The notes: generated by a model not told the origin, from the sequence alone. 33,385 nucleotides of DNA from Alphaproteobacteria bacterium (GCA_029266795.1 JAQSWE010000020.1:1-33385); one strand, 5' to 3'. Positions 2,924-30,611 are shown, counted from the first letter of the stretch. Translations and numbers: made by a program.

Positions 2924-3508
2924 ATGGTGTCCCGCCCGCTGACCATCGGCGAAACCGCGCTTGCGAAAAGCGTCTTCGGCGATTCCATCGATTACGCGGC
3001 CGTCACCATCAACGACGGGAAATTTGCCGGGTTCCATCCCGAAGGCACCGCGATGGCACCCAACGGCAACCTGTACATGTATGGCTGCTATTCCGACGAC
3101 TACTCAGCGCGCGAGCCGTATGGTCAGGCATTGTTCATCCACGAAATGACGCATGTCTGGCAGTACCAGAACAAGATTCTCGCCCCGATCGCGGAGGCGG
3201 TGAAGCTGAATCTTGCGCATAAATTCAATTACCGCGCGGCGTATGACTATACGCTGGAGCCGGGCAAGGACCTGATCGAGTACAACATGGAACAGCAGGC
3301 GAGCATCGTGCAGGACCGCTTCCTGCTGCAGCGCGAGCCCGGATCCGAATTCTGGAGCAATTGCCTCAACGTCGAATACGGCGCGCAGCGCATGGCGCTT
3401 TACGATCAGGTGCTGGCGAAGTTTGACGCCGACCCCAGTTACGCGAAACAGGCGCAGTTTCCGACGGCGGCGTCGAAGAAAAAGCCAGGCGCAAGCAAGG
3501 ACAAATGA
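2924..3508 (+). CDS. Putative HEXXH zinc metallopeptidase (resembles proteins often auto-annotated as Rhs/Vgr-associated)
   Basis: RPLTxGE...FGDSIDY...AMAPNG...FIHEMTHVWQYQ...NMEQQA; basic C-terminal tail; no signal peptide. Confidence 0.75.
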   Translation: MVSRPLTIGETALAKSVFGDSIDYAAVTINDGKFAGFHPEGTAMAPNGNLYMYGCYSDDYSAREPYGQALFIHEMTHVWQYQNKILAPIAEAVKLNLAHKFNYRAAYDYTLEPGKDLIEYNMEQQASIVQDRFLLQREPGSEFWSNCLNVEYGAQRMALYDQVLAKFDADPSYAKQAQFPTAASKKKPGASKDK

Positions 3509-3825
3509 CAAAAGAACTGACCAATAAGAGGAAATGGATTGCTGTTGGCCAGGTCCTCTTCGCTATTTTATTCCCTTTTTGTCTATTTTGGATTTCGCCT
3601 TTAGAGCGTTTCACAACTGACATGTTGAAAAATATCCCTTGGCAACCAGTCCGACAATTCCTTGCTATGGGCATCATTTTAGGCGGCGGCATTGCTGCTC
3701 TTGGGTGTCTGCCATGTAGCCGGCAGGCCAGAATATTTATTTTGATTGTTTACGCTGCTTTAATGACGCCGGCCATCTTGATTGCTGCCATCATTCACGC
3801 GTGCAATCGCGGCGACTGCCTTTAA
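3505..3825 (+). CDS. Small three-TM membrane protein of unknown function
   Basis: ATGA overlap with the upstream gene; three hydrophobic segments; visibly AT-richer than flanking genes. Confidence 0.65.
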   Translation: MTKELTNKRKWIAVGQVLFAILFPFCLFWISPLERFTTDMLKNIPWQPVRQFLAMGIILGGGIAALGCLPCSRQARIFILIVYAALMTPAILIAAIIHACNRGDCL

Positions 3826-4166
3826 CCTTTCCGATGCCGCCATTCCAATAAAATGATGTAAGCCTTCACCACCGGCAGCAGCAGCGCCATCGCGCCCAGC
3901 ATCACGGTAAGCCATAGCACCCCATGCAGCCAGAGCGGCGGGTGGGCGAGGTTTTCGAATGCCCAGGCCAGCGGAATGATCGTGATGCCGAAGAAGAAGA
4001 TCAGGAAGACGCTCGCCCCGTCGCCGATGTCATGCGCGCCAAGATCCGCGCCGCAGTCGGCGCAGGTTTTCACGACGGTGATCGAGCGCGACTGGAACAG
4101 CCGGCCTTTACGGCAGACGGGACAGCGCGGTTTCAGGCAGAAGCGGAGGTCCTGAACGATGCTCAG
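3822..4166 (-). CDS. DUF983 family membrane protein
   Basis: RCPVCRKGRLF...CADCG...GDGA...PPLWLH pattern; usual position downstream of coxC. Start uncertain (CTG at 4166 or a GTG a few codons upstream). Confidence 0.85.
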   Translation of the reverse strand: MSIVQDLRFCLKPRCPVCRKGRLFQSRSITVVKTCADCGADLGAHDIGDGASVFLIFFFGITIIPLAWAFENLAHPPLWLHGVLWLTVMLGAMALLLPVVKAYIILLEWRHRKG

Positions 4167-5050
4167 GCGTTGCCCCACCAGTAGATCGCGACGAAGAGGA
4201 ACAGCCATACAACGTCCACGAAATGCCAGTACCATGCGGCGGCCTCGAACCCGAAATGGCTCTTCGCGGTGAAATGCCCCTTCATGTTGCGGAACAGGCA
4301 GACCAGCAGGAAGATGGAGCCGACGAGGACGTGGAAGCCGTGGAAGCCCGTCGCCATGTAGAAGGCGGAGGAATAGATGTTGCCGCCGTTTTCGATCGAG
4401 AAACGGAAGGTGGCATGCATGTATTCATACACCTGGAAGCAGGTGAAGAACGCGCCGAGCAGCACGGTGATCAGCAGCGCCTTGGTTGCTTCCGCCTGTT
4501 TGTTTTCGAGGATCGCGTGATGCGCCCAGGTGACCGTGCAGCCGGACAGCAGCAGGATCAGGGTCATCAGGAAGGGAATGTCGAAGGCGTCGATCGGCAC
4601 GACGCTGGAGGGGGGCCATGCGAAGCCAATCGCTTCGGTCGGACGCAACGCGCCGTTGAAGAAAGCCCAGAAGAAGGCGACGAAGAACATGACTTCGGAC
4701 GAAATGAACAGCGCCATGCCGTAGCGGAAGCCGATTTTAGCGATGGGGCTATGCGCCTTTTCCACGACCGCTTCATGGATGACGTCTTTCCACCAGACCC
4801 AGAACACCGCACCGAGCAGGATGAAGCCCAGAACTACCCACCAGATACCGAATTGAAATTGGCCGATTGACGCGTCCTTCAGTGAGTTCGGGAACATGTC
4901 CACAAGCTTTACCTTGTGCATGTACAGGACCGCAAACAAAGCAAGAAGACCCGCCGCAAATGATCCCACGAAGGGCCACGGGCTTGCATTGACCAGATGG
5001 TAGGGGTGGGGCTTGCCGCCCTTCAGGTCATATACCGGTTCATCGGACAT
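4163..5050 (-). CDS. coxC: Cytochrome c oxidase subunit III
   Basis: HPYHLVNASPWP, LFISSEVMFF, ATGFHGFHV and AAAWYWHFVDVVWLFLF motifs. Confidence 0.98.
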   Translation of the reverse strand: MSDEPVYDLKGGKPHPYHLVNASPWPFVGSFAAGLLALFAVLYMHKVKLVDMFPNSLKDASIGQFQFGIWWVVLGFILLGAVFWVWWKDVIHEAVVEKAHSPIAKIGFRYGMALFISSEVMFFVAFFWAFFNGALRPTEAIGFAWPPSSVVPIDAFDIPFLMTLILLLSGCTVTWAHHAILENKQAEATKALLITVLLGAFFTCFQVYEYMHATFRFSIENGGNIYSSAFYMATGFHGFHVLVGSIFLLVCLFRNMKGHFTAKSHFGFEAAAWYWHFVDVVWLFLFVAIYWWGNA

Positions 5051-5066
5051 GGGTCGTTCCTTTTCG

Positions 5067-5663
5067 TTAGCCTTTGTCGTTCACAAAATCGTCCATCGCC
5101 TTCTGCAGTTCGGTACTGTCTTTGCGGAAGAAGGTGTAGGACAGGGTAATGGTGTCGATGCCTTTCAGGTCAGGGTCATCGACGATGGCGGGGTCGATAT
5201 AGAACACGACCGGCATGGAGACTTTCTGCTGCGGCTTCAGGATTTGCTCGCCGAAGCAGAAGCACTGCGTCTTGTAGAAATATTTACCCGCGCGGAACGG
5301 CGTGACGTTGTAGACCGCCGTGCCCGCAACGGTTTCGGTCGTCGGGTTGAGGGCGGAGAAAGACGCGAAACCATCCGCACCGATATTGAGCGTGACGGGC
5401 CCCTGCTCCGACTGGAAATCCCACGGCATGCCGGGCGATGTGTCGGCGTGGAAACGCACCGTGATTTTACGGTCTAGTTCGGCGTGCCGTTTTTTCGCGT
5501 CGGCGACTTGCGCCTCCTGCGTTGTGCCGCCCCAGCCCATCAGCTTGCAGGTAAGTTCGTACAAGGGGACGGAGGCGAAAGACAGCGCAACCATGAAGAA
5601 GACCACGCCGAGGGTAATCTTCAGAACTTTCGCGTTTTTCTGCTGGAGCGTCGGTTCCATCAT
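5067..5663 (-). CDS. ctaG: Cytochrome c oxidase assembly protein CtaG/Cox11
   Basis: FASVPLY..C, YNVTP, KTQCFCF (Cu-binding) and ITLSYTFF motifs. Confidence 0.97.
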   Translation of the reverse strand: MMEPTLQQKNAKVLKITLGVVFFMVALSFASVPLYELTCKLMGWGGTTQEAQVADAKKRHAELDRKITVRFHADTSPGMPWDFQSEQGPVTLNIGADGFASFSALNPTTETVAGTAVYNVTPFRAGKYFYKTQCFCFGEQILKPQQKVSMPVVFYIDPAIVDDPDLKGIDTITLSYTFFRKDSTELQKAMDDFVNDKG

Positions 5664-5782
5664 CAGCCGCCCTTCATGCGGATGATGGTCACGACAAACA
5701 CCGTGACCATGAAGGCGATGACGGAGAGGAACACCGCGTAGTTTTTAAGTTTCTTGCGCTTATGCAGTTCGGATTTCGGCAT
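5663..5782 (-). CDS. 39-aa CoxF-like small membrane protein
   Basis: Below the ORF-track cutoff: MPKSELHKRKKLKNYAVFLSVIAFMVTVFVVTIIRMKGG*. Basic N-terminus plus one TM; exactly fills the ctaB-ctaG gap, with TGATG coupling to ctaG. Confidence 0.85.
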   Translation of the reverse strand: MPKSELHKRKKLKNYAVFLSVIAFMVTVFVVTIIRMKGG

Positions 5783-5784
5783 GT

Positions 5785-6690
5785 TTACACCTTGTCCATC
5801 ATCATGACGGTGAACAGAGCAAACAGGTAGAATATCGAATAGCCGAACATCAGGCGCGCGAAGCGGTAGCCGGTTTCGCGCAGCACGCGCAAGGAACTGA
5901 CGATGAACATCAGGTGCAACAGCGACGCGATGACAAGATAAACCACGCCCGCCATGCCCATGAAATACGGGGCGAGGACGAAGGGGGTCATCAGAAGCGT
6001 GTAGAGCACCATCTGACGCTTGGTCGAGGCTTCGCCCGCCACGACAGGCATCATCGGCACATTCGCCTTTTTATAGTCGTCGTTGCGGTACAGCGCGAGC
6101 GCCCAGAAATGCGGCGGGGTCCAGAGGAAGATGAGCGTGAACATGACGATTGATTCAAGCGACACGCCGCCCGTCACCGCCGCCCAGCCGATCATCGGCG
6201 GGAAAGCGCCTGCCGCGCCGCCGATCACGATGTTCTGCGGCGTGATGCGTTTCAGCCAGATGGTGTAGATCACGACGTAGAAGAACGATGCGAAGGCGAG
6301 CAACGCCGCCGCCGTCCAGTTGACCGCAACGCCCATCAGGCCGACGGAGAGGAAGGTCAGCACGACGCCAAAGCCCAGCGCCTCCGCCGAATCCACGCGC
6401 CCCGTGACGATGGGGCGGTTTTTCGTGCGGTTCATGACGGCGTCGATATCCTGCTCGTACCACATATTGATGGCACCCGATGCCCCTGCCCCGACCGCGA
6501 TGCAGAACACCGCGACCAGTTGCAGGAACGGATGCAGGTGGCCGGGCGCGAGGACAATCCCCGCCACGCCCGAAAACACCACCAGCGTCATCACGCGCGG
6601 CTTCAGGAGCTCGATGAAATCGCGGATACGCGTTTCAGCGCGCGCGGCATCGGGCGCTACGTCGAAACTGTATGTCGCGAAATCGGTCAT
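5785..6690 (-). CDS. ctaB: Protoheme IX farnesyltransferase (heme O synthase)
   Basis: LLKPRVM, DIDAVMNRTKNRP, NIVIGGAAGAFPP and WTPPHFWALAL motifs. Confidence 0.97.
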   Translation of the reverse strand: MTDFATYSFDVAPDAARAETRIRDFIELLKPRVMTLVVFSGVAGIVLAPGHLHPFLQLVAVFCIAVGAGASGAINMWYEQDIDAVMNRTKNRPIVTGRVDSAEALGFGVVLTFLSVGLMGVAVNWTAAALLAFASFFYVVIYTIWLKRITPQNIVIGGAAGAFPPMIGWAAVTGGVSLESIVMFTLIFLWTPPHFWALALYRNDDYKKANVPMMPVVAGEASTKRQMVLYTLLMTPFVLAPYFMGMAGVVYLVIASLLHLMFIVSSLRVLRETGYRFARLMFGYSIFYLFALFTVMMMDKV

Positions 6691-6698
6691 GGATCCTT

Positions 6699-9385
<2,687 letters not shown>

Positions 9386-9407
9386 GAGGGATAGGCCGGA
9401 CTCGACC

Positions 9408-9433
9408 ATGTGACAGTTATATACCTGTCACAT
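9408..9433. promoter_or_regulatory. Palindromic operator upstream of the cox operon (RegA/PrrA-like?)
   Basis: Perfect 9-bp inverted repeat ATGTGACAG-N8-CTGTCACAT. Confidence 0.5.
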
Positions 9434-9603: not shown

Positions 9604-10416
9604 TTAGGGCGTGGGCTGCGCCTTGGGCTTGGTGTTCCGCGATGGATTCAAGCGGGTGGCGATGGCAGCTGCCACTGTCTCCTGCACCGCCTTCGACAAA
9701 TCCTCTTCCGTCCCCTGCCAGTAAGCGGGGCCGTTCACCACATGATGGCGCAGTCGGGTCGGGAATTCCTTCGCCAGCTGTTCGGACAAAAATTCCATCG
9801 AGGTATCCGTGCGGCCAAAGATCACGAAATCGACCGTCGCCCGCAATCCCGCGCGCAGCAGCTTTTCCATCTCCGCCTTCGCCGCCGGATAATCGTGGAA
9901 GCCGCCGTCAGAGATCACGATGAAATGAGAGGCCTTGCCGTTCAGCTTGTTCACGGCGGCCGTTTTAATCATCTCCGTCACCGCAGGCGCGAAGTCGCTG
10001 GAGGGGCCGCCCCTGAATAAATTTTTGCGCGTTTCGGGATCGAGGATATCGCCCCTCACCCATTCCGCCTCGCGCGGACCGGCATATAGGCATACCGGCG
10101 CAGCCAAAACCGCCGCACCATCCAGCGCCGCCGAAAACGGTTTCGCCGTGATGCTGCCGGATCTATCGATGAAAACGGCGAAAGCCGCATCCTTCGGCTT
10201 CGTGCGCAGCCCCTTGACGAATTGCGCGGCAACCGATGTGCGGTTGCGGTACTGCGCGGCGTTTTCATGCGCGCGCCGGCGTTCTTCCTGCTCAAGGCGG
10301 CCGATCAGGGCGTCAACCGTCTGCTCCATGCGCCGGCGGTCCTGCGCCTGTTCCTCGAACGCGCGCTTCAGCCGCTGTGCGTCTTTTTTCAGGTCGTCAG
10401 CATCGCCGGCGGTCAT
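9604..10416 (-). CDS. Coiled-coil plus vWA-like domain protein
   Basis: N-terminal heptad-like helix; MIDAS DRSGS; HFIVISDG; Lys/Pro-rich tail. Confidence 0.8.
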   Translation of the reverse strand: MTAGDADDLKKDAQRLKRAFEEQAQDRRRMEQTVDALIGRLEQEERRRAHENAAQYRNRTSVAAQFVKGLRTKPKDAAFAVFIDRSGSITAKPFSAALDGAAVLAAPVCLYAGPREAEWVRGDILDPETRKNLFRGGPSSDFAPAVTEMIKTAAVNKLNGKASHFIVISDGGFHDYPAAKAEMEKLLRAGLRATVDFVIFGRTDTSMEFLSEQLAKEFPTRLRHHVVNGPAYWQGTEEDLSKAVQETVAAAIATRLNPSRNTKPKAQPTP

Positions 10417-10425
10417 GGTGTCCGC

Positions 10426-11236
10426 TTACGGTTTCGGCGCTGCGGGCTTTTTGCGGCGCGTCGTGTCTTCACGCAGGCGCTCCGACATGATCTCGATCAC
10501 TTTTGACTGGAGGTCTGACGACAGCTGTTGCGACAGGGTTGTGCGGTGCTGGCGCACGCGATCCGGGAAGTTGGCGATAATTTGATTCGCCATTCTTTCC
10601 ATGGAGGTTCCGGGCGGTGACATGATCAGGAAATCGACCGTCACTTTTTTATTACTTTTCAGCAGTGCTTCCAGTTCGTCCTGCGCCTTTTTTGGGTCGA
10701 AAACATCCCCGTCCGAAATCAGAAGAAAATGCGTTGTTTTTCTGGCGAGCGTATTTACTGCCGCAATTTTTTCCATGTCCGGCACGCTGGGCGCAAGATC
10801 CGAGCCGCTGTTCAATGTCTGCAGCAGCTTGCTGCGCAGCGAGGGCTGCGTAATGTCACCCTCAATCCAATAGGGCTTGCTGTCGCCGAACATGGCGAAG
10901 GCCGCCGGTTTCGCACGCGACAAGGTGCCGCCCTTGCGCACAACATCGACTGCATCCAGCGCGGCTGCGATAGGCGGGCCATTCATGCTGCCCGAGCCGT
11001 CAGCAAGCACGACAAATTCCGATCTTTTCTCTTTCCGCAGCTTCCAGAAGCGTCAGAGCATCTCCCACGGCATGCGCCATGCGTTCGTAATCCTGCGCCG
11101 TGTTGTTGAACTGCTGTTTCAACTGGCGCAGGCTATGAATCGTGCGCTGCGCATCGGGCTGCTCGCCATGGGTGCCTGCGGCATGGCCGCTGCTGAGGCC
11201 GTAATTGTTCGCGGCACGATAATGTTCGTTGGTCAT
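10426..11236 (-). pseudogene. Split coiled-coil plus vWA paralog (ORFs 11000-11236 and 10426-11010)
   Basis: The 5' ORF aligns with the N-terminus of 9604-10416 (LKQQFNNTAQDYERM vs LKRAFEEQAQDRRRM). The 3' ORF has DGSGS, HFLLISDGD and TVDFLI. The frame changes by +1 at about 11015-11050. Confidence 0.7.
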
Positions 11237-11742: not shown

Positions 11743-11771
11743 TTTACATAATCCTAGTGATTGGGTATGAT
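11743..11771 (+). promoter_or_regulatory. Sigma70-like promoter
   Basis: TTTACA-N17-TATGAT, 22 nt before ATG 11794. Confidence 0.6.
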
Positions 11772-11793
11772 ATGGCCTCATCTGGGGGGCTTC

Positions 11794-12813
11794 ATGATCG
11801 AGAACGTTATTTTCGGATATGGGACGGAGAGGCGCGGCGGGGGCGAGACCGCCAACCGTCTTGCCGCCGATCTCGATAAAACCGATCTGGGGCGCAAGCT
11901 CGTGCAGTTCCTGAAACAGCAGGGTTTTACCGTCCATGTCACCCGAGACCTCCCCAAAGGCCATGAGGGTTCTGCCGGTCTTGCGATACGGTCGGCCCGC
12001 AAGATTTATATCCGCGCCGGATATTCGCCCGCCGAAACCTTGCGCATCTTCGCGCATGAGACCCGTCATGTCGGCCAGTTCGCGGCGGAGCAATCCACTA
12101 CCAGCACCTTCCGCCTGTACCATCCGGTCAACCAGATCGCGCATAGCTGGCTGCGGGAGATGGATGCCGAGGCCTTTGCCGCGCATTTCATCAGCACGCA
12201 TGAACGCCGCGTCGGCGACGGCGTGATGTGGACGTTGATGGGCGATATAAGCACCAGATGGAAGAGCAGTTTTTACAAGGCTTATATGAAAGAGGTCGAG
12301 GCGACATCCGGCCGCGACGGCGCAAGCCCCATGCGCGCTGCCTTTTACTGTTTTCTTGAAAGCCCGGGACTGCGCCGCAGTTACGCCTTGGGGGCGATGG
12401 ATGACTGGAACACGCAATATCCCCAACTGAACCAGCAGACGGATTACCTGTCCCCCCTGCGCCGGCAGTTCATCGACCTTGCCGCCGACAGCCGCGGCGC
12501 ATCGGGCCGCGAGTTGCTGTTCGAGCGCGCGCTGGCCTATAGCAAGATTTTCAACGAATTCGGTTCGCCCGATTATTTAAGCGGACAGAAGCTGTCGAAG
12601 CTCGAGGAAAAAATGACGGGCGAGAAAACGGAATTACGCGGCACCGATGCGCACCGGCTGGAAAACGCCCTGTTCCAGTTCAACCAGATCGAAAGCCGCG
12701 TCATGCCGCCGAAAACGCCGGCACCGCAAAGCGGGCTGCTCTCGCGCCTGCTGAACCGCAGGGTCACGCCGGCAGAGCTGAACCTCCGCCACAATCCCTA
12801 TATGAATTACTGA
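11794..12813 (+). CDS. Putative gluzincin-like metallopeptidase, orphan
   Basis: FAHETRHVGQ followed by EMDAEAFA (HEXXH...E); no signal peptide. Confidence 0.7.
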   Translation: MIENVIFGYGTERRGGGETANRLAADLDKTDLGRKLVQFLKQQGFTVHVTRDLPKGHEGSAGLAIRSARKIYIRAGYSPAETLRIFAHETRHVGQFAAEQSTTSTFRLYHPVNQIAHSWLREMDAEAFAAHFISTHERRVGDGVMWTLMGDISTRWKSSFYKAYMKEVEATSGRDGASPMRAAFYCFLESPGLRRSYALGAMDDWNTQYPQLNQQTDYLSPLRRQFIDLAADSRGASGRELLFERALAYSKIFNEFGSPDYLSGQKLSKLEEKMTGEKTELRGTDAHRLENALFQFNQIESRVMPPKTPAPQSGLLSRLLNRRVTPAELNLRHNPYMNY

Positions 12814-16380: not shown

Positions 16381-17511
16381 TTAAGGATGCGTCGACGCCG
16401 CTTGCGGCTGCGCGGGCTTCGGCGGGCGCTTGATGCTGAACATCCAGTTCCAGACGGCGCTGGTGTAGAAGTACGGCGATTCACATTCATGGCCGACGCC
16501 GCGGATTTCGCTGTAGAAGGCTGCCTTGCCGCCCGAACCGCGGATGACCTGCGCCAGCGTTCCGACAGCCGAGGGTGGCACAACCTTGTCATTGCCGCCA
16601 TGGATCATGAAGAGCGGTGTCTTGGCCAACTTCGGCGCATCGGCAAAGCTCCATTTGCCGCCGATGGAAACCCCCGCCGCGAAGACGCCCGCGTAATGCG
16701 CGAGCGCCCCCAGCACGCCGTCGCCGCCGGTGTCGCAGCCGATGATATACATGCGGCTGTCGTCGATCGGGTGAAGTTCGGTGAGCGACGCCAGCACGAT
16801 GATCGCATCGCGCAGCGACAGCGATGAAGCGCCCGGATGCTTCAACTCGCCCGCTTTGGGAAATTCCTGCCCTGTGTATCTCAAGGGCGCGTCCCAGATT
16901 TTTTCCTTGGGCGATAGCGGGATCATCAAATAGGACGGATAGGCCTTTTGCACGGCAGTCGCGCGCAGCTGAATTGCGGCCTGACTAACGCCGTCCTTGT
17001 CGTGCAGGATGACGACGACGGGCAGCTTGACATCATTGGGGTTGGGCGGCGCGTACCAGTAATAAAAAACTTCGCGCTTGATGCCGTTGTCCTCGATCAG
17101 GAATTTCTTTTTCTTGAACAGCGAGGGCGTGGTGTACTGGCCCATCGGGAAATCGTTGCGCGGCGCCTCCACATTCACCTGACCGCTCAAATTCGCAATC
17201 ACATTGCCGTTGCCGCCGAACAATTTGTGCCGCACCTGCGGGAACATCAGCGCCACGCCGCAGGCAAGCCCAAGGATCGTGAAGATCATGATCAGCTCGC
17301 CCTTTTTCTTGGCGGCCTGCGCTTCTTCCGGCGTCACTTCGTTCTGGCCGCCGGCGCCGGCGGTGCCCGCGCCGGGCTTCTTCTTGTTCTTGTCGGGTTT
17401 CTTGGTGAAGTAGGCGATGCCCTGCTTGACCATCTGGACGAAGGTCATGAAGATTTCGCCCATGACGCGCATGAGCTCAATCGTCATCTCGATCATTACT
17501 TCCCAAAGCAT
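16381..17511 (-). CDS. Membrane-anchored alpha/beta hydrolase-fold protein with atypical nucleophile
   Basis: LPVVVILH, IDDSRMYIIGCDTGG, FAAGVSIGG, HGGNDKVV and GVGH; one TM segment near residues 74-91. Confidence 0.8.
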   Translation of the reverse strand: MLWEVMIEMTIELMRVMGEIFMTFVQMVKQGIAYFTKKPDKNKKKPGAGTAGAGGQNEVTPEEAQAAKKKGELIMIFTILGLACGVALMFPQVRHKLFGGNGNVIANLSGQVNVEAPRNDFPMGQYTTPSLFKKKKFLIEDNGIKREVFYYWYAPPNPNDVKLPVVVILHDKDGVSQAAIQLRATAVQKAYPSYLMIPLSPKEKIWDAPLRYTGQEFPKAGELKHPGASSLSLRDAIIVLASLTELHPIDDSRMYIIGCDTGGDGVLGALAHYAGVFAAGVSIGGKWSFADAPKLAKTPLFMIHGGNDKVVPPSAVGTLAQVIRGSGGKAAFYSEIRGVGHECESPYFYTSAVWNWMFSIKRPPKPAQPQAASTHP

Positions 17512-19896: not shown

Positions 19897-19919
19897 ATAT
19901 TGCGCCCCGTAACTGATAT

Positions 19920-19975
19920 TATAATTTATAATAAATTATATCATATTTCATTATTAGATTATATATCCATAATCT
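19920..19975. promoter_or_regulatory. Two AT-rich inverted repeats in the divergent LysR promoter region
   Basis: TATAATTTAT-A-ATAAATTATA (19920-19940) and AGATTAT-N6-ATAATCT (19956-19975). Confidence 0.5.
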
Positions 19976-20017
19976 GGCATTCTGAAGATAGAGGGTAACG
20001 CAACAAGGGGAAATAAC

Positions 20018-20530
20018 ATGGCTGACGCAGATTTCAAACGCCGCGTGGAAATGATCGAAGCAGGCTCGGTGGATGATTTCCAGACCGTCAACAGCCTGCT
20101 CGCCGATGACAAATACCTGCATTCCTTCGGCGTCTATCTTGGTGTCATGTCCCGCGAAAATCCCTCCGCCGTTGAAAAAAGCCTGAACCTGCCGAACCTC
20201 GACCGCACGACCGGCTTCTTCCGCCAAATGATCTCGAATGCGGTTTCGAACGCCGCGTATAGCGGTGAAAAGGAATTCCTCGAAACGCTGTTGAAATACG
20301 CGCCGGAACCGGCAGACCAGGCACAAGACGGCTTGCGCCATATCTTTGACTCGATGGCGATGGACAGCCGCGACAACTTCTCGGCCGATACCGCCGCGAT
20401 CCTTGTGCGCGCGGGCGCGAACGTGCAAACCGCAGCGGCACCTTACGAAGCGCAACTGGTTGCGCAGCAGAACAAGGCGGCTGCGTCGCTGTCGAAAATG
20501 GCGCAGTTCAAGCAAAGCATCGCGGCGTAA
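20018..20530 (+). CDS. Hypothetical protein with degenerate ankyrin-like helices
   Basis: GGGG RBS; NAAYSGEKEFLETLLKY and AILVRAGANV resemble ankyrin half-repeats. Confidence 0.7.
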   Translation: MADADFKRRVEMIEAGSVDDFQTVNSLLADDKYLHSFGVYLGVMSRENPSAVEKSLNLPNLDRTTGFFRQMISNAVSNAAYSGEKEFLETLLKYAPEPADQAQDGLRHIFDSMAMDSRDNFSADTAAILVRAGANVQTAAAPYEAQLVAQQNKAAASLSKMAQFKQSIAA

Positions 20531-20550
20531 GATACGATTGATCCCGAATA

Positions 20551-21441
20551 TTACGGCTTCGGCCAGCGGCGATGCACCCAGAGCCATTGTTCCGGCTTTT
20601 CCCGGATCCAGCTTTCCAGCAGCAAATTTATATCGGTCAGGATGAGTTTGACGTCGGCATCTTTCCCGCCCGTCACGATCACCGGCAACGGGGGAAAAGC
20701 GGTCAGGCGGAAACGGCATCCCGCGATGCGCTCCACGCGAAACGGATAAAGCGGACAGCTGAATTTCAGGGCGAAATGGGCAATCGCGGGTGCGGTCATG
20801 GCATCATGACCAAAAAACGGAATCGCGACGCCCTCGTTCAGTTTCTGGTCCACCAGCATGCCCACAACGCCGCCGGCACGGAGCAGCGTGACGATGGCGC
20901 GCGCGCCGCCCGGGCCTTTTTCGATGTAACCGGCGCCGCCCAGCGACCGCGCATGCGACAGCAGCTTTTCGACCCACCGGTTGTTGGGCTTCCGGTAAAC
21001 GATATGCAGGTCGAGCCCCGTTTTCTGGCGGAGGATCGGCACTTCCCAATTCGCGGTATGCGCGCTGAATAGGATTGCGGCCTTGCCGTTGTCGCGCGCA
21101 GCCTCGAGATGCTCGATGCCGATGACTTCAGCACCCTTCCAGATATGGTGCAAATGCGGATATTCGGCGATGACGCGGCCGAGATTGTCCCACATGCCGT
21201 TCAGGATAATATTTTTTTCGTCTTGTGTTTTCTCTGGAAAGGCGCGGTCCAGATTGCGTCCCGCGATCTTCGCGCCCTTCAGGTGCGGGCCGGCCTTTGA
21301 CAGCAGATAGCCACCGAGGGATGACGCCTTTTCCATCGGCAGCAGCCAGAAGAAGCCATAGATGATATGCGCGAGCAAACCCTCGACGGCATATCGCACA
21401 TGTCGCAAAAATACGGGTTGCCCGAGGGCACGCGCAGTCAT
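20551..21441 (-). CDS. Lipid A late acyltransferase (LpxL/HtrB family)
   Basis: HTANWE (H-X4-E), MLVDQ, PFFG, WIREKPEQWLWVHRRW. Real start is probably ATG 21441, not 21771. Confidence 0.93.
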   Translation of the reverse strand: MTARALGQPVFLRHVRYAVEGLLAHIIYGFFWLLPMEKASSLGGYLLSKAGPHLKGAKIAGRNLDRAFPEKTQDEKNIILNGMWDNLGRVIAEYPHLHHIWKGAEVIGIEHLEAARDNGKAAILFSAHTANWEVPILRQKTGLDLHIVYRKPNNRWVEKLLSHARSLGGAGYIEKGPGGARAIVTLLRAGGVVGMLVDQKLNEGVAIPFFGHDAMTAPAIAHFALKFSCPLYPFRVERIAGCRFRLTAFPPLPVIVTGGKDADVKLILTDINLLLESWIREKPEQWLWVHRRWPKP

Positions 21442-21506
21442 TATCAATTCCTCGCGGCTCTCGATGTTGGGGGGCTCAAGCGGATTTAGTATATCAGAAC
21501 AAAGCG

Positions 21507-22319
21507 TTAAGGCGAGGGCGGAAGATAGGGCGGCTTGGTCAGCTTGGGGTTTTTGATCGCGTCGAGCTCTTCGGTCAGCTCTTTTACCTTCACCTGTAGG
21601 TCGCGGATGGCGAACATTTCTTCTTTTACCTCTTCGAGGAGGGCGCGGTTGCCGCGGAAGCCTTCTTTCTTCGCGCCTTCGATCGCCTCGTCGATATTCG
21701 CGCCGTGGCGCTCGACCAGATAGCGCACAACCTGTTTCTTGTCGCGGCTTGCCGCTTCGCGCAAGGCCCATTGCAGGTTTTTTGGGGGCGTGCCGATCGC
21801 CTCCACCAGCAGGGTATAGGCGCGCAACGCACCCTGTTGCAGCGCGGTTTCCGCCAGCCGTTCGGGGTTCTTGATATTGGCGACGCCGCCTTCGATCAGC
21901 CGCTCGACCAGCATCGCCTTGCGCCCGTCATCAATGCCGGAATGCAGCACGTTCGAGATAATATGCGACCAGCCGTCCGATTTGTTGAAATCGATGCCGG
22001 CGTCGAGGAAATGCTCGAAGGTGTCGTAGCGTTTATCGTTGATGGCGTTGCGGAACTGTTTTTCAAGGAAGCTGTCGCGCGCCGCGCGGTCTTCGAAGCC
22101 CCAGCGCGCCCAGTCTTCGTCGCTTGCCTCTTTCGCAAAAAACTTTATCGTCTCCGGCTGCAAGCGCCAGCTGTCATAGCGTCCATAGCCGCGCTTCTCC
22201 AGCTCTTCTAGCTGCTTTAAAATATTCTTGTCTTCATAGCCCAGCCAGTCGCGCAAACGCTCCACGTTGTTTTCGCGCGCGGCCTGAACGAATTCATAGG
22301 AACTGCCGACATACTTCAT
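21507..22319 (-). CDS. Ankyrin-like repeat protein with C-terminal coiled coil (paralog C)
   Basis: FLDAGIDFN; ALREAASRDKKQVVRYLVERHGANID; heptad C-terminus. Confidence 0.75.
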   Translation of the reverse strand: MKYVGSSYEFVQAARENNVERLRDWLGYEDKNILKQLEELEKRGYGRYDSWRLQPETIKFFAKEASDEDWARWGFEDRAARDSFLEKQFRNAINDKRYDTFEHFLDAGIDFNKSDGWSHIISNVLHSGIDDGRKAMLVERLIEGGVANIKNPERLAETALQQGALRAYTLLVEAIGTPPKNLQWALREAASRDKKQVVRYLVERHGANIDEAIEGAKKEGFRGNRALLEEVKEEMFAIRDLQVKVKELTEELDAIKNPKLTKPPYLPPSP

Positions 22320-22870
22320 CTGCGGTCCGGCTCCGGCTGCTGCAGCATGAACGGCGGCGACCTGTCGATCAGGCCTTTCGTGGCGAAGAAGGCGACGACA
22401 TCGCGGAGATTGGCGCGGTTGGCAAAAGCGACGGCGCGCTCGGGAAAGGTCATGTTGCTGTGCCCTTGCTCCAGCATCTGCGCAATATAACGCAGCCTGT
22501 CCGAATCTTCGATGGGCGACAGGACGACACGCAGCATCGCTTCGGTGCCGTGCCGGCCGTTGAAATGATTTTTTTCTTTACGGATGATAACGTCCAGCGC
22601 CGGGATGTTCCGGGCTTCGAGCAGGCGCGACAGCACATGAAGGAACGGCGTGCCCTCGTCGATATCTTTCTCGTTGGCGGCGCCGTTTTTTCCCGTCAGC
22701 ACCGCCGCCATTTGCGGCGTCAGGGCGGCGGCAAGTTTTTCGTCCAGCAGTTCCGACAATTTGTAGCCCTTCACCTCGCGCGCCAGCCGTTCGGCGACCA
22801 GCACATCGTCCTTCAGAATGGCGTCGCGCAGCTTGCCTGCGGCGGTCTGGAAAACGCCTTTCATGCTCAT
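22316..22870 (-). CDS. Short ankyrin-like paralog B
   Basis: Collinear with the first ~170 aa of both neighbours; ATGA-coupled on both sides. Confidence 0.7.
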   Translation of the reverse strand: MSMKGVFQTAAGKLRDAILKDDVLVAERLAREVKGYKLSELLDEKLAAALTPQMAAVLTGKNGAANEKDIDEGTPFLHVLSRLLEARNIPALDVIIRKEKNHFNGRHGTEAMLRVVLSPIEDSDRLRYIAQMLEQGHSNMTFPERAVAFANRANLRDVVAFFATKGLIDRSPPFMLQQPEPDRR

Positions 22871-23709
22871 GGCGACGGGTTCCGCAGCACAGGCTTGTTC
22901 AGCGACGTATCCGGCTGCAGCTTCGCCAGCTTTTCCGTCAGCTCCCGCACGGTGTCCTGCAGCGACCCCACTTCGGCGGTCAGGGTTTCAACTGTGCGGA
23001 GCGCGGGCGCGGCAGGCAGCTTCTTTTTCAAATCCCCGAGGAATTCGAAAACATCCTTGTTACCCAGCGCCATTTCCGTCGAAATCGCAAGGTCGATATC
23101 CGCGCCATGGCGCGTTACTAAATGCAGTGCCATGTCCGTTGATTGGCCGCGCGCAGCGCCGCGCAGCAGTTGCTCGTTGTTCTTGTGCAAGTCAAGGCCG
23201 ATGGCGGCGAACAGGTCGACCGCTTCAGTAAATTTTTTATCTACCGCTATTTGCAACGATTTGTCCGTATCCTGCATCCCGTCATAGCCCTTGGCGAGCA
23301 TTTGTTTCATCATGCGCAGCTTCACATCGTCGGGAAACGCGCTTGCGATCACGATCCCCAGAAACCAGCTGCCCGTTTTCTGGTTAAAATCCGTGCCCCC
23401 CCTCTCCATCAGCATTTCGGCAATCTCCAACCGGTTACGGCGGATTGCGTCGCCGAGCATGGAATCGAGGATCGTCTGTTTCGAGCCCGGTTTCATCTCC
23501 CAGCGGCCCAGTACCGTGTCATCGAGCTTTTCGATCAGCAGCCCCGCCATGCGGGGCGTTATGTCGGCCACGTACTCGCCGCGCAGTAGTTCTATAAAAA
23601 AGTCGTAACTCTTTTTCTGCATCAGCTGCTCCATGCGCGGCAGGTCGTCGGTTTTCACCGTTTCGCGGAAGGCGTCTGATTTGGACTGGAAGATGCGGGA
23701 CAGTTTCAT
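22867..23709 (-). CDS. Ankyrin-like repeat protein with C-terminal coiled coil (paralog A)
   Basis: AIRRNRLEIAEMLMERG; LLRGAARGQSTDMALHLVTRHGADID; start taken at ATG 23709. Confidence 0.78.
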   Translation of the reverse strand: MKLSRIFQSKSDAFRETVKTDDLPRMEQLMQKKSYDFFIELLRGEYVADITPRMAGLLIEKLDDTVLGRWEMKPGSKQTILDSMLGDAIRRNRLEIAEMLMERGGTDFNQKTGSWFLGIVIASAFPDDVKLRMMKQMLAKGYDGMQDTDKSLQIAVDKKFTEAVDLFAAIGLDLHKNNEQLLRGAARGQSTDMALHLVTRHGADIDLAISTEMALGNKDVFEFLGDLKKKLPAAPALRTVETLTAEVGSLQDTVRELTEKLAKLQPDTSLNKPVLRNPSP

Positions 23710-23763
23710 GGCAAAACCAAAGGATCGGTTGGCGAAGGGAAGATGCCCTTGAGCGCCTGCCAA

Positions 23764-23795: not shown

Positions 23796-24506
23796 TTAAA
23801 GCTGAAACGGCTTATGCGGTTTTGCGTCGTTTTTAGGGGTGCTTTGCGGGGTGACCGTCAAGACGAAATCGCGCAGCAATTCCAATGCCTTGGGGCTGGC
23901 ATCATGCTTCTGGCCAGTGATGATTTCGGCCTCGGCCCTGAATTGCTGTTCCTTTAGAACGGTTTGGAACCACACCGCATGGGGCGCGCCGGAATAGTGC
24001 TGGTTTTCCAGCTCCCCCGCCACCAGCTTGACCGGCGGTTTTGATTTCACCTCGGCAAGGTCGAGCGCGCCGCCCGAAATGGCGAAGACGCCGGCGACTT
24101 CCGTTTCGCGGGAGAGGCCCGTATAAACCGCCATCGTGCCGCCCTGCGAAAAGCCCGCGATGACGACGCGGTTTTCCGGCAGGCCCGCTTCCGCCGCGAT
24201 TTTCGTGATGTAATCGTTGAGCTCAGCTGCGGTCGCCGGCGCGCGTTCCTGCGCAGTGCGTCGCAACAGGCCAATATCATCCTGCCGGTCGATCACGTCG
24301 CGCAGTTCGAACCAGCTGTGGTTGTTGAAGCCCATCTGCACGGGCGCATCGGGGAAATGCAGTTTCGCATTCGGCAGCATCGGCCCGAGGATGTCGCCGA
24401 CATACTGGCGCATCAGGTCGCCCGACGAGCCGTAGCCATGCATAAACACAACCAAAGTCTCGGGTTTCTTGCCGCTTTCGGGATCGCGCGAATAATCCTG
24501 AATCAT
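23796..24506 (-). CDS. Phospholipase/carboxylesterase (YpfH-like alpha/beta hydrolase)
   Basis: LVVFMHGYGS, PDAP, SWF and AGFSQGG nucleophile elbow; C-terminal His (GQKH). Confidence 0.88.
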   Translation of the reverse strand: MIQDYSRDPESGKKPETLVVFMHGYGSSGDLMRQYVGDILGPMLPNAKLHFPDAPVQMGFNNHSWFELRDVIDRQDDIGLLRRTAQERAPATAAELNDYITKIAAEAGLPENRVVIAGFSQGGTMAVYTGLSRETEVAGVFAISGGALDLAEVKSKPPVKLVAGELENQHYSGAPHAVWFQTVLKEQQFRAEAEIITGQKHDASPKALELLRDFVLTVTPQSTPKNDAKPHKPFQL

Positions 24507-26986: not shown

Positions 26987-26999
26987 CAGACGAGTTTTA

Positions 27000-27438
27000 T
27001 TATTTTCTCGAAGCTGTTGGCAGGCTTATCGTGTCGAGGGTGAGCCTATCCCCCGGTTCGATCGTGTAGACGGGAAGGTAAAGGTTTTTCGGAGCCGGAC
27101 CGTTACGTACACGCCCCGATTTATCGTAACTGGAACCGCAGCGTGGACACTGCCAACCACCCCATTTTCCGCGAGGGAAGTTTGCGTGTTCAAACATAAG
27201 TGGACAGTCATTAAGCGTACACATCCCGTTCACGACGAGCCATTCAGACAAAACTAATCCGTGCACCAGCTTTAATGTTTTTGAGATCAATATTGGTTAT
27301 GCCGCGACCCCACACATCCGCCGCCGGATTCATGCTGTTGATCATCACCAGTCCGGACGTGCCAACCGCAATCGCGCCCATTGCATAGGCGGTGTAGGTG
27401 AGGAAGCTGCGGCGGTTTTGGGGTTGGGCGTGGTCCAT
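27000..27438 (-). pseudogene. Split, divergent PetA-like Rieske protein paralog
   Basis: 5' ORF (27244-27438, GAGGA RBS): RRSFL Tat motif, [20 protein letters not shown]. 3' ORF: [30 protein letters not shown]. Joined by a +1 frame change at about 27245 with the central segment missing. Confidence 0.8.
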
Positions 27439-27511
27439 GACCAATCCTCGTAAAATTAATTAGTAAATTCAATTCAATAGTATCGGCGTGCTAGCTCACA
27501 TCGCGTAAAAC

Positions 27512-27539
27512 TTGACATAACCACCCATTCCGCTACCCT
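27512..27539 (+). promoter_or_regulatory. Promoter of the orphan gene cluster
   Basis: TTGACA-TAACCACCCATTCCGC-TACCCT, 28 nt before ATG 27568. Confidence 0.5.
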
Positions 27540-27567
27540 GCCCCCGTATTCAAACGAGGGTTTTTTC

Positions 27568-28545
27568 ATGCCGTTCTATCTCGGCGTTGCGCAGCGCGAT
27601 GTGGTTGCATCCATTCACGATAATCTTGCCCTGCTGGAGACATATTCGGTGGGTCCGGCGGTGCAGGCGCAAATCGATGCGTTGCGCGCGGTTGACCCTG
27701 CCACCGGCACATCGAAACTGGGCGCGATTGCGGCGGCGCTCGACGATATGTCGCTGATCCATGCGGTAAAAAATTCGGGCGTGACGGATGTGTTTGGCGC
27801 CGTTGCGGAAGTGCTGCATTTCCACGCGCAGGCGAACACCGATAACAAAGGCACGGCGCTGTGGCAGTCGCTGATGAGCTGGAACGGGCTCGGCAATGGC
27901 CGCACGCTCAGCTATGGCGACACCGATGCGGAATGCGACAGCTGGCTGGCCGTGAACCGCGCGAAGCTGATCCCGATGACGCAGGAGAACCTCGATAAAA
28001 TCCACACCATCGCCCATGTGACGTCACAGAAGCAGGACGCGATTAACAACGCCATGGTCGTGATGACGTCGATGGTGTCCGTCCATCACACGGGCGGCGA
28101 TGTCGATAACATGAAGCATTTGTTCCTGAAACTCGACCTTCATGAGCGCCATATCGTGAACAAGACCTTTGCCGCGATCACGCAGGAAAACGCGCCGCAC
28201 ATCCACGCCCCCGGACCCTATGCGCTTTATGGCGTCGTGATCGACGACATGACATCGGGCAAGATCGGCTGGGGCGACGAGAGCCTGCAGCCGCTGGTGG
28301 AGCGCACCTCTGCCGCGCTGCAGCCGTATCAATCGACCGGCGAGGTGCAGCGTTTCATGGTCGGCCGCATCACGCCGCCGGAAGCAGCCGAGCAGCTGGA
28401 AGGTTTCCTGATCGTATCCACCCGCCGCGCGGGGCAGGCTGTTGCGAACGCTCTGCCGGAATTCCGCGTCGTCGACCGCGACGGCGTCACCCTGCCCGCA
28501 CAATCATCACCGCACCCGAAACCGGGCAGCCGCTTTTCAATTTAA
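27568..28545 (+). CDS. Hypothetical protein (325 aa)
   Basis: GAGG RBS; host-like GC3-rich codons; no recognisable domain; PHPKPGSRFSI tail. Confidence 0.75.
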   Translation: MPFYLGVAQRDVVASIHDNLALLETYSVGPAVQAQIDALRAVDPATGTSKLGAIAAALDDMSLIHAVKNSGVTDVFGAVAEVLHFHAQANTDNKGTALWQSLMSWNGLGNGRTLSYGDTDAECDSWLAVNRAKLIPMTQENLDKIHTIAHVTSQKQDAINNAMVVMTSMVSVHHTGGDVDNMKHLFLKLDLHERHIVNKTFAAITQENAPHIHAPGPYALYGVVIDDMTSGKIGWGDESLQPLVERTSAALQPYQSTGEVQRFMVGRITPPEAAEQLEGFLIVSTRRAGQAVANALPEFRVVDRDGVTLPAQSSPHPKPGSRFSI

Positions 28546-28557
28546 GGAGAATAAAAA

Positions 28558-29055
28558 ATGACCGCCAAGAAACTTGATATCGGCTTCCAGCGCACGCTGG
28601 ATACCATTTCCCTCAGCGACGCTTTCCGCCGCCATGCCGGATACGGCGAGCCGCTGCTGGTGAAGGAAATGGTCAAGGAAGCGCGCCGCTTTGCCGCATT
28701 GGCGACATGGTACGATCCGGGCGAAAAATTCCGCCATGAAGACCTGAAGAAATCCTTCGCCGCCATCGTCACGCGCATGGCCGATCTGGGCAAGAAACTG
28801 GGCGCTGATAATATCGTGCTGCCCGTCAGCGGCGATCCGCGCAGTTCCTTCGCCCAGTTCTTTGAACAAAAAGTCCTGCCCGAATTGAAACTGCCCGTTG
28901 CCGTCAGCCTGCAAAAGGCCGAATACAAAACCGACCTGACGCGCCTTGGCAAGATCGACCATCGCATCAAGACCGCGATCGATAAAGGCGTGCGCGGCAT
29001 GGCCGATATCAACAGCAACCTGAAATACAAATGGGACCGCAACCCCGGCCGCTAA
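28558..29055 (+). CDS. Hypothetical protein (165 aa)
   Basis: TAAGGAG RBS; host-like codons; basic and helical. Confidence 0.78.
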   Translation: MTAKKLDIGFQRTLDTISLSDAFRRHAGYGEPLLVKEMVKEARRFAALATWYDPGEKFRHEDLKKSFAAIVTRMADLGKKLGADNIVLPVSGDPRSSFAQFFEQKVLPELKLPVAVSLQKAEYKTDLTRLGKIDHRIKTAIDKGVRGMADINSNLKYKWDRNPGR

Positions 29056-29070
29056 AAGGAAACTTAAGCC

Positions 29071-29613
29071 TTGTTACGCCGCATCGCATATCTTTGCCTC
29101 ATATTGCCGCTGCTCGGCGCTTGCGCGCAGGCCATCGGGCCGGAGGCGACGACCGACAAGATGCGCGGCGATACTTCGATGACTTACGTCTTCAAGAATG
29201 ACGTGCAATTGCTGCCCCGCACGCGGATCAGCGGTGCGGTATTGCAGGAAGGACAGCATTACCGCGCGCGCGGGCTGCTGGAAATCGACGGCGATGTACC
29301 GCCGCACGGGTCGCTCACCGTCACGGACGGCAAGTTGGTGGTGACCGGCAATGTCGCCCGCAACAGCCGCATTACCGTCATGCAGGATGTGGATACCTTC
29401 GAGGAATTCCGCAACGTGCCATGTAATGCGCCGCTGGAAACCACCGTCTGCCATGAAAAGGTCGAGGTTGTGCGCCGCAAGTTCAGCGACGGCGACCCTG
29501 CCGTCGATATTCGCGGCGCGCTGGGGACGGATGCGAAAATCATCACCAACGGGGCGGTCTACGTCTCGGGCCGCCGCTTCGAACATCCCGGCTACGTCGC
29601 CACCCTCCCGTAA
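29071..29613 (+). CDS. Lipoprotein with putative beta-helix (paralog 1)
   Basis: TTG start; lipobox LLGAC; repeated L/V-x-I/V-x-G-x-V units. Confidence 0.75.
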   Translation: MLRRIAYLCLILPLLGACAQAIGPEATTDKMRGDTSMTYVFKNDVQLLPRTRISGAVLQEGQHYRARGLLEIDGDVPPHGSLTVTDGKLVVTGNVARNSRITVMQDVDTFEEFRNVPCNAPLETTVCHEKVEVVRRKFSDGDPAVDIRGALGTDAKIITNGAVYVSGRRFEHPGYVATLP

Positions 29614-29695
29614 ATCAGGCACTTAGCCGAAAATCCGCGCGGTATCATGAAACCGTGTTATTATGTTCATATCGAGCATAACAACGGAGATTCGC

Positions 29696-30283
29696 ATGAA
29701 GGCTGGTGTGTTTCGCAAGATGGGTCTGGTTCTCGCTTTCGCAGCGGCGCTCGCCGGTTGCGGGCAGGCCCTCGGCCCGGGCGCCAGCACACCCGAGCTG
29801 CAAGGCACCACGACCCTGACACAAGTTTTCAACGGCGGTCCCCAGCAGCCCAGCACCACCATCCGCGCCGAAGCCCTTCAGGCGAAGGAAAGCTATCACA
29901 GTGAAGGCCAGCTGGTGATCGAAGGCAGCGTACCCGCCGGTGCCACCATCAACGTTGAATCCGGCAAGCTGGTGGTGACGGGCGATGTCGGCAACGGCGC
30001 GCGCATCAATGTCTCGCAGCCCACGACGACGCATAGCGAAACCTATACGGGTTATTGCTACGCCTATAGTTTCCGCGGGAAATTCGAATACAGCTTCAGC
30101 GCGTTTTGCAGCCGCACCATCGTCGACGGCCTCACCTATAACGACAGCGCGCCTGCCGTAACGGTGAAGGGGACGCTCGGCACCGATGTGCGGATTTCAA
30201 CCCCAGGTAGTATCACCGTGAACGGCCGCGAGATCGTAAATCCCGGCCGCATCCTGCCCGTGGCGATGAAACCGGGCGCGTAA
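29696..30283 (+). CDS. Lipoprotein with putative beta-helix (paralog 2)
   Basis: GGAG RBS; ATG 29696; lipobox ALAGC; collinear with 29071-29613 (GKLVVTG.V and G.LGTD shared). Confidence 0.8.
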   Translation: MKAGVFRKMGLVLAFAAALAGCGQALGPGASTPELQGTTTLTQVFNGGPQQPSTTIRAEALQAKESYHSEGQLVIEGSVPAGATINVESGKLVVTGDVGNGARINVSQPTTTHSETYTGYCYAYSFRGKFEYSFSAFCSRTIVDGLTYNDSAPAVTVKGTLGTDVRISTPGSITVNGREIVNPGRILPVAMKPGA

Positions 30284-30291
30284 ACATATAT

Positions 30292-30321
30292 TTGACATAA
30301 TTATAAAGTTTCCGCTATAGT
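30292..30321 (+). promoter_or_regulatory. Sigma70-like promoter
   Basis: TTGACA-N18-TATAGT upstream of ATG 30354. Confidence 0.6.
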
Positions 30322-30353
30322 CTCCGGACAATCCATGCCCGAAGGAGACAGCC

Positions 30354-30611
30354 ATGCCGATTAACCCCAATGCTAAAGGCGAAGTGAGCGGTGAATCCCT
30401 GTTCGGCGATGCGGGTAGCCCGGAGGCGCTGGCGATGCGCAATGCGTTCCCACCGGAACCAAAAGAGCGCTATTCCGGCCTAAAATCCCTGCTCGGCAAG
30501 CTCAAAAAGGCCTTTACGGTCGAAGCGTCGAAGGACGGTGCCACTTGCGATAGTCCGCAAGGTGCCTGCCCGTTTAAGCCGCACAGCAATTTCCGCAACT
30601 GGCCCTACTGA
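30354..30611 (+). CDS. Small hypothetical protein (85 aa)
   Basis: AAGGAG RBS and a good upstream promoter. Confidence 0.65.
   Translation: MPINPNAKGEVSGESLFGDAGSPEALAMRNAFPPEPKERYSGLKSLLGKLKKAFTVEASKDGATCDSPQGACPFKPHSNFRNWPY

Follow-up and report, generated by a model that had tools for sequence, protein, structure and literature searches.

Here we report that a large share of the proteins of an uncultured alphaproteobacterium end in short, basic, proline-rich tails that may be a lineage-specific version of the C-terminal translocation signal of Dot/Icm secretion systems. The tails came to attention in a contig of 33,385 nucleotides (JAQSWE010000020.1:1-33385, our contig C125; hereafter the window) from the metagenome-assembled genome (MAG) of Alphaproteobacteria bacterium GCA_029266795.1 (G000: 2.78 Mb, 317 contigs, 77% complete, 1.7% contamination, 58% GC), in which a first-pass annotation had quoted nine of them between positions 2,924 and 30,611 and proposed them as a candidate translocation signal of effectors. 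Across the genome they mark a large, clustered, lineage-specific and ankyrin-rich set of proteins in an organism bearing Dot/Icm genes, and they behave like a short signal under constraint. From comparisons of sequence, we give their interpretation as a candidate Dot/Icm signal a probability of about 0.5.

Proline-rich, acid-poor C-termini of lineage-specific proteins

Genes of all genomes were called with a self-written open reading frame (ORF) selector based on a hexamer model, which is crude and not a standard caller; the position of a C-terminus is set by frame and stop codon alone. The selector gave a first set of 2425 and a refined set of 2456 proteins for G000. A protein was scored as carrying a KP (lysine/proline) tail when its last 15 residues held at least two prolines, at least two lysines or arginines and at least five residues of these kinds together. 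Such tails terminate 487 of the 2425 proteins of the first set and 489 of the 2456 (19.9%) of the refined one, and the same composition is found in 3804 of 115341 internal 15-residue windows (3.3%). The further a window lies from the C-terminus, the lower the count (487, 345, 239, 152 and 113 at offsets of 0, 5, 10, 15 and 20 residues), and the N-terminus gives only 177. Relative to the internal level, lysine is enriched 1.83-fold and proline 1.69-fold in the last 15 residues, the tripeptides PKP, PPK and KPP are enriched 16-fold, and proline is the final residue of 11% of all proteins. The excess persists at other coding-score thresholds and when a tail is defined in four other ways. A DNA repeat or a mobile 3' cassette was ruled out as its source, since no 8-mer is enriched beyond stop-codon contexts and terminal proline uses all four codons. 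BLAST clustering sorts the 489 tail-bearing proteins into 374 groups, of which 266 are singletons. Along the genome their genes are clustered: 125 pairs are adjacent, where 84.6 +/- 7.6 would be expected.

Proteins of G000 were divided into lineage-restricted ("no-hit") and conserved ones by tblastn searches of G032, a genome from another family of the same order, of whose 1.65 Mb the searches covered 1.4 Mb. KP tails are borne by 390 of 1531 no-hit proteins (25.5%) versus 77 of 748 conserved ones (10.3%), a 2.5-fold difference (Fisher p=1.8e-18) that bears out the enrichment in orphan over core proteins anticipated by the first-pass annotation. With a stricter tail definition the ratio rises to 3.6-fold (228/1531 versus 31/748), and the contrast is present at every coding-score threshold and under the four other definitions. 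The rate is highest, at 29.6% (292/986), in no-hit proteins without a hydrophobic segment, and most of the lineage-restricted tail-bearers are soluble. The excess of no-hit proteins over the conserved rate amounts to about 230 (390 observed versus about 158 expected, in a MAG that is 77% complete). Internal windows of KP composition are equally frequent in the two classes (3.3% and 3.5%). The largest lineage-specific family of the genome consists of 74 ankyrin-repeat proteins, 49 of which have KP tails.

Lysine does not set the two classes apart: its enrichment in the tail is 1.67-fold in no-hit and 1.64-fold in conserved proteins, and is seen in G032 as well. Proline, by contrast, reaches 1.97 times the internal level in no-hit versus 1.20 times in conserved proteins, and Asp and Glu stand at 0.67 and 0.79 times versus 0.88 and 1.08 times. 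When no-hit and conserved soluble proteins are compared by position, proline occupies -1 in 17% versus 5%, -3 in 13% versus 6% and -2 in 5% of both, and the acidic residues are depleted from -1 to -11 in the no-hit proteins and equal beyond. The discriminating signal is proline, especially at -1 and -3, together with a lack of acids, and lysine is generic; of the "KP" signal as first proposed, it is thus the proline that survives. The same distinction explains a caveat attached to that proposal, namely that the housekeeping proteins CoxB and YidC of the window also end in basic tails: their ends are indeed Lys-rich but lack the proline signature.

The typical terminus is P-x-P-COOH (for example AP[KRQ]P) or G/S-F-x-L-COOH, and exact endings recur in unrelated proteins. 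APKP-COOH is found 10 times, about 0.4 being expected from a hand calculation on per-position frequencies, AAPKP-COOH 7 times and SFDL-COOH 9 times; the 18 proteins ending in AP[KRQ]P-COOH are mostly unrelated, their end codons differ, and the DNA downstream of them is unrelated too. Within the last 40 residues the motif TA.F[KRGS] occurs in 46 proteins of 25 clusters (5.8 expected). The loose pattern [LIVMKR]GG..P is not enriched in that interval (60 observed, 66 expected); a clear sub-group, helix-LGG.PP...KP..P, exists within it. Seven paralogues of 95-120 residues without a Pfam family (C42:3359-5271, where six lie in tandem, and C237:2199-2492) end in ...VELGG.PP.L.PE...LNKP.RGLNP, and several ankyrin proteins likewise have the helix-LGG-PP module ahead of their KP tail.

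The tails are conserved. In 64 pairs of orthologues between G000 and G001, a closed single-contig genome of the same genus, the KP tail is 83% identical and the stretch of 65 residues before it 85%. Over 47 ungapped pairs, a choice of pairs that favours conserved ends, dN/dS amounts to 0.152 for the 15 codons of the tail and 0.116 for the 65 before them; the tails are under purifying selection. Among proteins of the window, the tail NPKL.KPPYLPP.P of the protein at 21507..22319 is almost invariant in six genus orthologues of 73-91% identity, and L[DN]KPVLRNP[AS]P of the one at 22867..23763 is conserved in four. In the AlphaFold model of the former, which is all-helical, the helix extends as far as residue 256; the predicted local distance difference test score is below 50 for residues 259-263 and 265-270. 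The tails are predicted to be disordered stretches of 10-20 residues beyond the last folded element, net positive, rich in proline and poor in Asp and Glu. For the protein at 27568..28545 we found 32 homologues (33-97% identity), and all that carry a name are called "hypothetical". Twenty aligned sequences, 32-87% identical to that of the window, end in P[KR][PK]..GF.L-COOH or, in three cases, in ..[GS]PKP-COOH, with one APKP and one QKKL. Since GF.L and GPKP ends replace each other in this family, the end types seem interchangeable and the tail appears to be older than the genus.

A separate class of C-terminus is formed by the 137 of 2425 G000 proteins (5.6%) that end in AA, KKAA being among the commonest last four residues; CoxB of the window (8333-9409) exemplifies a K/A-rich end. 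AA-COOH ends are not genus-specific (2.3-9.8% in other genomes), nor are they enriched in no-hit proteins (5.0% versus 7.0% of conserved ones), and the class is possibly degron-like. Degrons of the ClpX type have either a non-polar ..AA-COOH end, as in ssrA, or a basic end followed by A or I, as in MuA. We rejected such a role for the KP tails, most of which end in Pro or F.L.

A Dot/Icm system and the range of the tails among relatives

Secretion genes were searched for in five genomes of the genus, G000 and four that are 96-99% complete. The suggestion of a type IV machine held for Dot/Icm and failed for VirB/D4. VirB4 (PF03135) was found in 0/5 genomes, and VirD4 (PF02534) had a Pfam match in G001 only, where the VirD4/TraG-type gene (G001:C1:1616360-1617613; 740-residue ORF) is probably part of a mobile element. 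TssC of type VI secretion was likewise found in 0/5, and the one FHIPEP per genome is presumably flagellar; VirB/D4, type VI secretion and an injectisome were rejected as the export machine on these grounds. Two secretins and five to six T2SSE ATPases look like those of type II secretion, type IV pili, Tad and DotB.

A TrbI match in all five genomes led to a Dot/Icm operon in G001, with the order DotI, DotI-like, DotH, DotG, weak DotF-like and TraQ-like genes, and DotN (3e-26). DotM (1e-47), a DotL-like coupling ATPase (2e-112), DotD (8e-31), DotB (2.7e-115) and IcmT (1e-24) are encoded elsewhere in the genome, and G000 has its own copies of dot genes on the small contigs C256, C35, C89, C69 and C200. 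IcmF and IcmV were not found with NCBIfam models, and the two ORFs upstream of dotI gave no PDB or NCBIfam match. Judged by homology, a Dot/Icm type IVB system is present in the genome. Ankyrin and KP-tail genes are neighbours of the dot loci (C69; loci L013 and L153). A search of 41 relatives detected DotH in 39, among them members of all eight families of the order and each of the 31 genomes of high quality. The organism may belong to the Micavibrio-related order, Micavibrio being filed by NCBI under Bdellovibrionales, though the evidence conflicts. The Dot/Icm type of system has been reported in seven marine Micavibrionales (PMC9418006; this and the other papers cited are drawn on in part), and the parts drawn on of the M. 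aeruginosavorus genome paper report no type IV system (PMC3189940).

Two features of the coupling genes deserve mention. The Ala/Pro-rich C-terminal extension of the G001 DotL-like protein (L023:4381-6963, residues ~700-860) contains four copies of a motif, PLNWMQVIG, PVSWEDVIS, PISWMDVIG and PLNWADVIG, which might serve to dock adaptors or substrates. Between dotM and dotL lies an ORF of 169 residues with one hydrophobic segment and no family match, 80% identical between G001 (L023:3844-4353) and G000 (C256:1143-1643).

With the same gene-calling pipeline, KP tails were found in 80 of 354 proteins (22.6%) of G001, in 21/164 (12.8%) and 14/132 (10.6%) of G016 and G023, which belong to other genera of the family, in 62/1334 (4.6%) of G032, and in 5.7%, 7.5% and 9.6% of proteins of G049, G050 and G066, from the same class. 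The rates describe a lineage trait that is strongest in the genus. Ank_2 matches, counted among the best 96 candidates scored, number at least 91-118 per genome in the genus, at least 9-127 elsewhere in the family and 0-11 in 15 of 16 genomes of other families, the remaining one, G037, having at least 93. In this AT-rich genome seven tandem ankyrin genes of ~265 residues (locus L154, G037:C157:19001-25500) all have the basic ending ...AKIPKIKN.KKI; being paralogues, they count as one observation. It points to a basic end as the shared theme, with proline as its high-GC flavour, and partly offsets the narrow range of the tails as an argument against secretion.

Tail-bearing proteins of the window

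The window mixes housekeeping genes (M32 carboxypeptidase, SURF1, the cox operon, a YsxC-like GTPase, YidC, YidD, RnpA, LpxL-like, PFK and Hda) with genes of weak or no Pfam match, and 12 of its 37 predicted proteins of at least 80 residues have KP tails. All nine ends quoted initially are true C-termini of ORFs, in the places assigned to them, and eight are basic and proline-rich by our definition, WDRNPGR being the exception (Table 1).

Table 1. Proteins of the window and their C-terminal ends (KP tail as defined in the text)
Position	Strand	Protein	Length (residues)	C-terminal end	KP tail	Remarks
2924..3508	+	HEXXH protein (FIHEMTHVWQ)	194	...AASKKKPGASKDK	yes	no G032 homologue
9604..10416	-	orphan	270	...NPSRNTKPKAQPTP	yes	P-x-P-COOH; no Pfam family above cut-off
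10426..11010	-	orphan	194	...TTRRKKPAAPKP	yes	AAPKP-COOH class; adjoins 9604..10416
16381..17511	-	alpha/beta hydrolase	376	...KRPPKPAQPQAASTHP	yes	Pfam Peptidase_S9/DLH barely over cut-off; one hydrophobic segment near N-terminus
20551..21447	-	LpxL-like lipid A acyltransferase, conserved		...WVHRRWPKP		Pfam Lip_A_acyltrans 1.3e-45
21507..22319	-	ankyrin-like	270	NPKLTKPPYLPPSP	yes	tail follows long C-terminal helix
22867..23763	-	ankyrin-like paralogue	298	...SLNKPVLRNPSP	yes	
23796..24506	-	phospholipase/carboxylesterase	236	...PKNDAKPHKPFQL	yes	F-x-L-COOH class; Abhydrolase_2, Pfam 2.4e-22
27568..28545	+	orphan	325	...SPHPKPGSRFSI	yes	no Pfam family
28558..29055	+	orphan	165	...KWDRNPGR	no	
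30354..30611	+	doubtful gene	85	...FKPHSNFRNWPY	yes	coding score 19.6 (low)

The effector-like cargo seen in the first-pass annotation is substantiated by the large ankyrin expansion genome-wide, but the individual HEXXH and ankyrin calls of the window lie under Pfam cut-offs. The HEXXH protein has a weak eCIS_core/DUF4157 match (E=0.0035); it belongs to a cluster of six paralogues, other members of which end in ...RRKPAAPKP and ...PKPPRAA. For the two ankyrin-like proteins the best Ank scores are 20.9 and 24.7 bits, the gathering cut-off being 27.3, and both fall outside the 74-member ankyrin cluster. The vWA domain ascribed to 9604-11010 was not recovered by Pfam. The phospholipase is classed as conserved, and its KP tail lies within the C-terminal part that does not align to the G032 homologue. 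The LpxL-like enzyme is a housekeeping protein with a PKP end, where its G032 orthologue ends in ...WLHRRWSM.

A DUF6782 putative metallopeptidase is encoded at 11761-12813 (+; 1e-14), and a second one (3e-15) lies immediately upstream of the dotI operon of G001 (L153:3996-5045, -); an HEXXH paralogue on C155 also has a weak DUF6782 match. Two long ORFs without a Pfam match, at 19919-20719 (-) and 20018-20530 (+), overlap on opposite strands, and the coding score is better for the one on the + strand.

Competing explanations and comparison with known signals

If the tails are a Dot/Icm signal, the coupling complex (DotL/DotM/DotN) would read them for translocation, and the ankyrin-repeat proteins, hydrolases and HEXXH proteins that carry them, many of no assigned function, would be injected effectors. 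The data establish the tails, their enrichment and conservation and the presence of the machine; that the machine reads them, and through which component, we infer. A more specific version of this proposal is somewhat less probable: the family may have evolved a sequence-defined Dot/Icm signal that differs from the Glu-rich E-block of Legionella, a proline-rich, acid-free basic linker with interchangeable P-x-P-COOH and G-F-x-L-COOH ends, read by a diverged complex whose DotM would lack three of five Glu-binding arginines and whose DotL would bear four W-x-D-V-I-G repeats.

Several observations weigh against a translocation signal. KP tails are found above the conserved rate in no-hit proteins whose N-terminus has a hydrophobic segment (45/253) and in those that have several membrane segments (31/200), and they occur on 10.3% of conserved proteins. 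Among the latter, 32 of 76 examined extend C-terminally by at least 8 residues beyond their G032 homologue, and those extended include thiolase-like, SOD-like and LpxL-like enzymes, unlikely effectors (named from sequence ends, LpxL also from Pfam). Ten strong-tail proteins sampled with Pfam included an acyl-CoA dehydrogenase and an oxidoreductase, the others being a lipase-like hydrolase, a GNAT protein, a weak DUF6782 match under cut-off and five without a match. Each of the eight families of the order has Dot/Icm, yet strong tails (20-23%) are found in this genus only. Lineage-restricted proteins of G032 match the conserved ones in tail proline and are only somewhat more hydrophobic at -1 to -3; G032 is moreover a reduced genome of 1.65 Mb, and the absence of a hit in it is a coarse proxy for orphan status. 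The cytoplasmic part of DotM is net positive (36 K+R versus 29 D+E), which offers no simple charge match to basic tails and no obvious partner for them, and we rejected charge complementarity between the two. Finally, the position profile is without a Glu-rich E-block at -8 to -18, D/E being lower at -8 to -11 and equal beyond.

Much of this would be expected if the tails were a proteome-wide trait of the lineage with no role in secretion, an explanation that we regard as unlikely but as the most serious of the alternatives. They could protect against exoproteases or C-end degrons, or reflect the evolution of 3' gene ends at 58% GC, and their enrichment in young lineage-specific genes could be an apparent one that stems from less constrained ends. 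The tails on 77 conserved proteins, plain metabolic enzymes included, their failure to track order-wide Dot/Icm, the generic enrichment of C-terminal lysine, the proline at the end of 11% of all proteins and the K/I-rich ankyrin tails of AT-rich G037, as base composition predicts, all fit this explanation. It accounts less well for an internal composition that is the same in both protein classes, for purifying selection on the tails like that on the protein body, for exact end motifs far above the per-position expectation, for a tail motif kept at 32-87% identity in the family of 27568..28545, and for the lack of such ends in the lineage-specific proteins of G032.

The proteins could also be injected effectors whose tail acts inside the target cell and not as an export signal, which we think improbable. 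The tails could then be proline-rich ligands of SH3- or WW-like domains, PDZ-like C-ends of the hydrophobic-x-hydrophobic type, or basic patches for acidic lipids. PxxP-like and Phi-x-Phi-COOH patterns are common in them, the ankyrin expansion suggests a eukaryotic host, and the Pro-rich region of Rickettsia RalF binds the host cytoskeleton (PMC4546372). An SH3-type register was nevertheless rejected, none being preferred: enrichment extends to KPP, PKP, PPK, P..PK and K.P..P alike and looks compositional. A motif at the extreme C-terminus of hundreds of unrelated proteins, moreover, fits a shared sorting step better than one common host partner. An artefact of gene calling or MAG contamination is very improbable in spite of the home-made caller and the fragmented, incomplete and slightly contaminated assembly, since the rate climbs with coding score (28.6% of no-hit proteins at scores of at least 150), the closed genome G001 gives a similar rate, orthologue pairs keep their tails, and calling a C-terminus takes frame and stop codon only.

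The signals of Dot/Icm systems are known for being ill-defined, and outside Legionella and Coxiella effectors are poorly predicted; here a candidate signal is visible by eye and statistically separates protein classes. Were it a Dot/Icm signal, it would provide a cheap effector predictor for the lineage, a second, chemically different class of signal with which to study recognition by DotL/DotM/DotN, and a way into the biology of an uncultured group whose genomes each have ~100 ankyrin genes. Under the more specific version of the proposal, several hundred effectors per genome could be legible from the last 15 residues, and the lineage would be a natural experiment in the co-evolution of signal and receptor. 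Were the tails no signal of this kind, conserved Pro-ended tails on a fifth of a proteome would still call for an explanation.

Our literature searches found no description of such tails, which resemble known signals in part. As in Legionella and Coxiella, the machine is of the Dot/Icm class, the putative signal is unstructured and confined to the last ~20 residues, with proline or hydrophobic residues near -3/-4 and few terminal acids, and the repertoire amounts to about a tenth of the proteome, is rich in ankyrin proteins and is genomically clustered. At -3/-4, Legionella substrates are reported to carry a hydrophobic residue or proline; acids are depleted in them from -1 to -6 and enriched from -8 to -18 (Burstein 2009, PMC2701608). 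The terminal features of this type hold here only for the population as a whole (Pro at -3 or -4, 19.5% versus 10.2%; D/E at -1 to -6, 4-8% versus 8-13%), and the tails differ from those of Legionella in their missing E-block, their strong enrichment in proline, their P-x-P-COOH and other discrete end motifs and their alphaproteobacterial host. In L. pneumophila, DotM residues R196/R197, R217 and R314/R315 bind Glu-rich tails, and DotM has been proposed to co-evolve with other kinds of tail where those residues differ (Meir 2018, PMC5802825). By our own reading of a phmmer alignment of the G001 protein with 6sz9_B, three of the five arginines are replaced (R196 by D, R197 by Y and R217 by A), R314 and R315 corresponding to R and K.

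Positively charged C-terminal signals are known to bind VirD4-type coupling proteins in type IVA systems, as in Rickettsia RalF and RvhD4 (PMC4546372). The KP tails share with type IVA substrates a net positive, unstructured end, in a genome that encodes a VirD4-family coupling ATPase, the DotL-like protein. They differ in that the VirB/D4 genes are missing from the genus genomes or, for VirD4, confined to G001, and in that proline, not arginine, is the residue that discriminates. The XVIPCD of the antibacterial type IV effectors of Xanthomonadales is a folded domain of ~120 residues, whereas the module described here spans 10-40 residues and is predicted to be disordered. In both cases, a single C-terminal module, the recognition element of XVIPCD effectors and a candidate for that role here, is appended to many unrelated cargo domains (PMC8740702).

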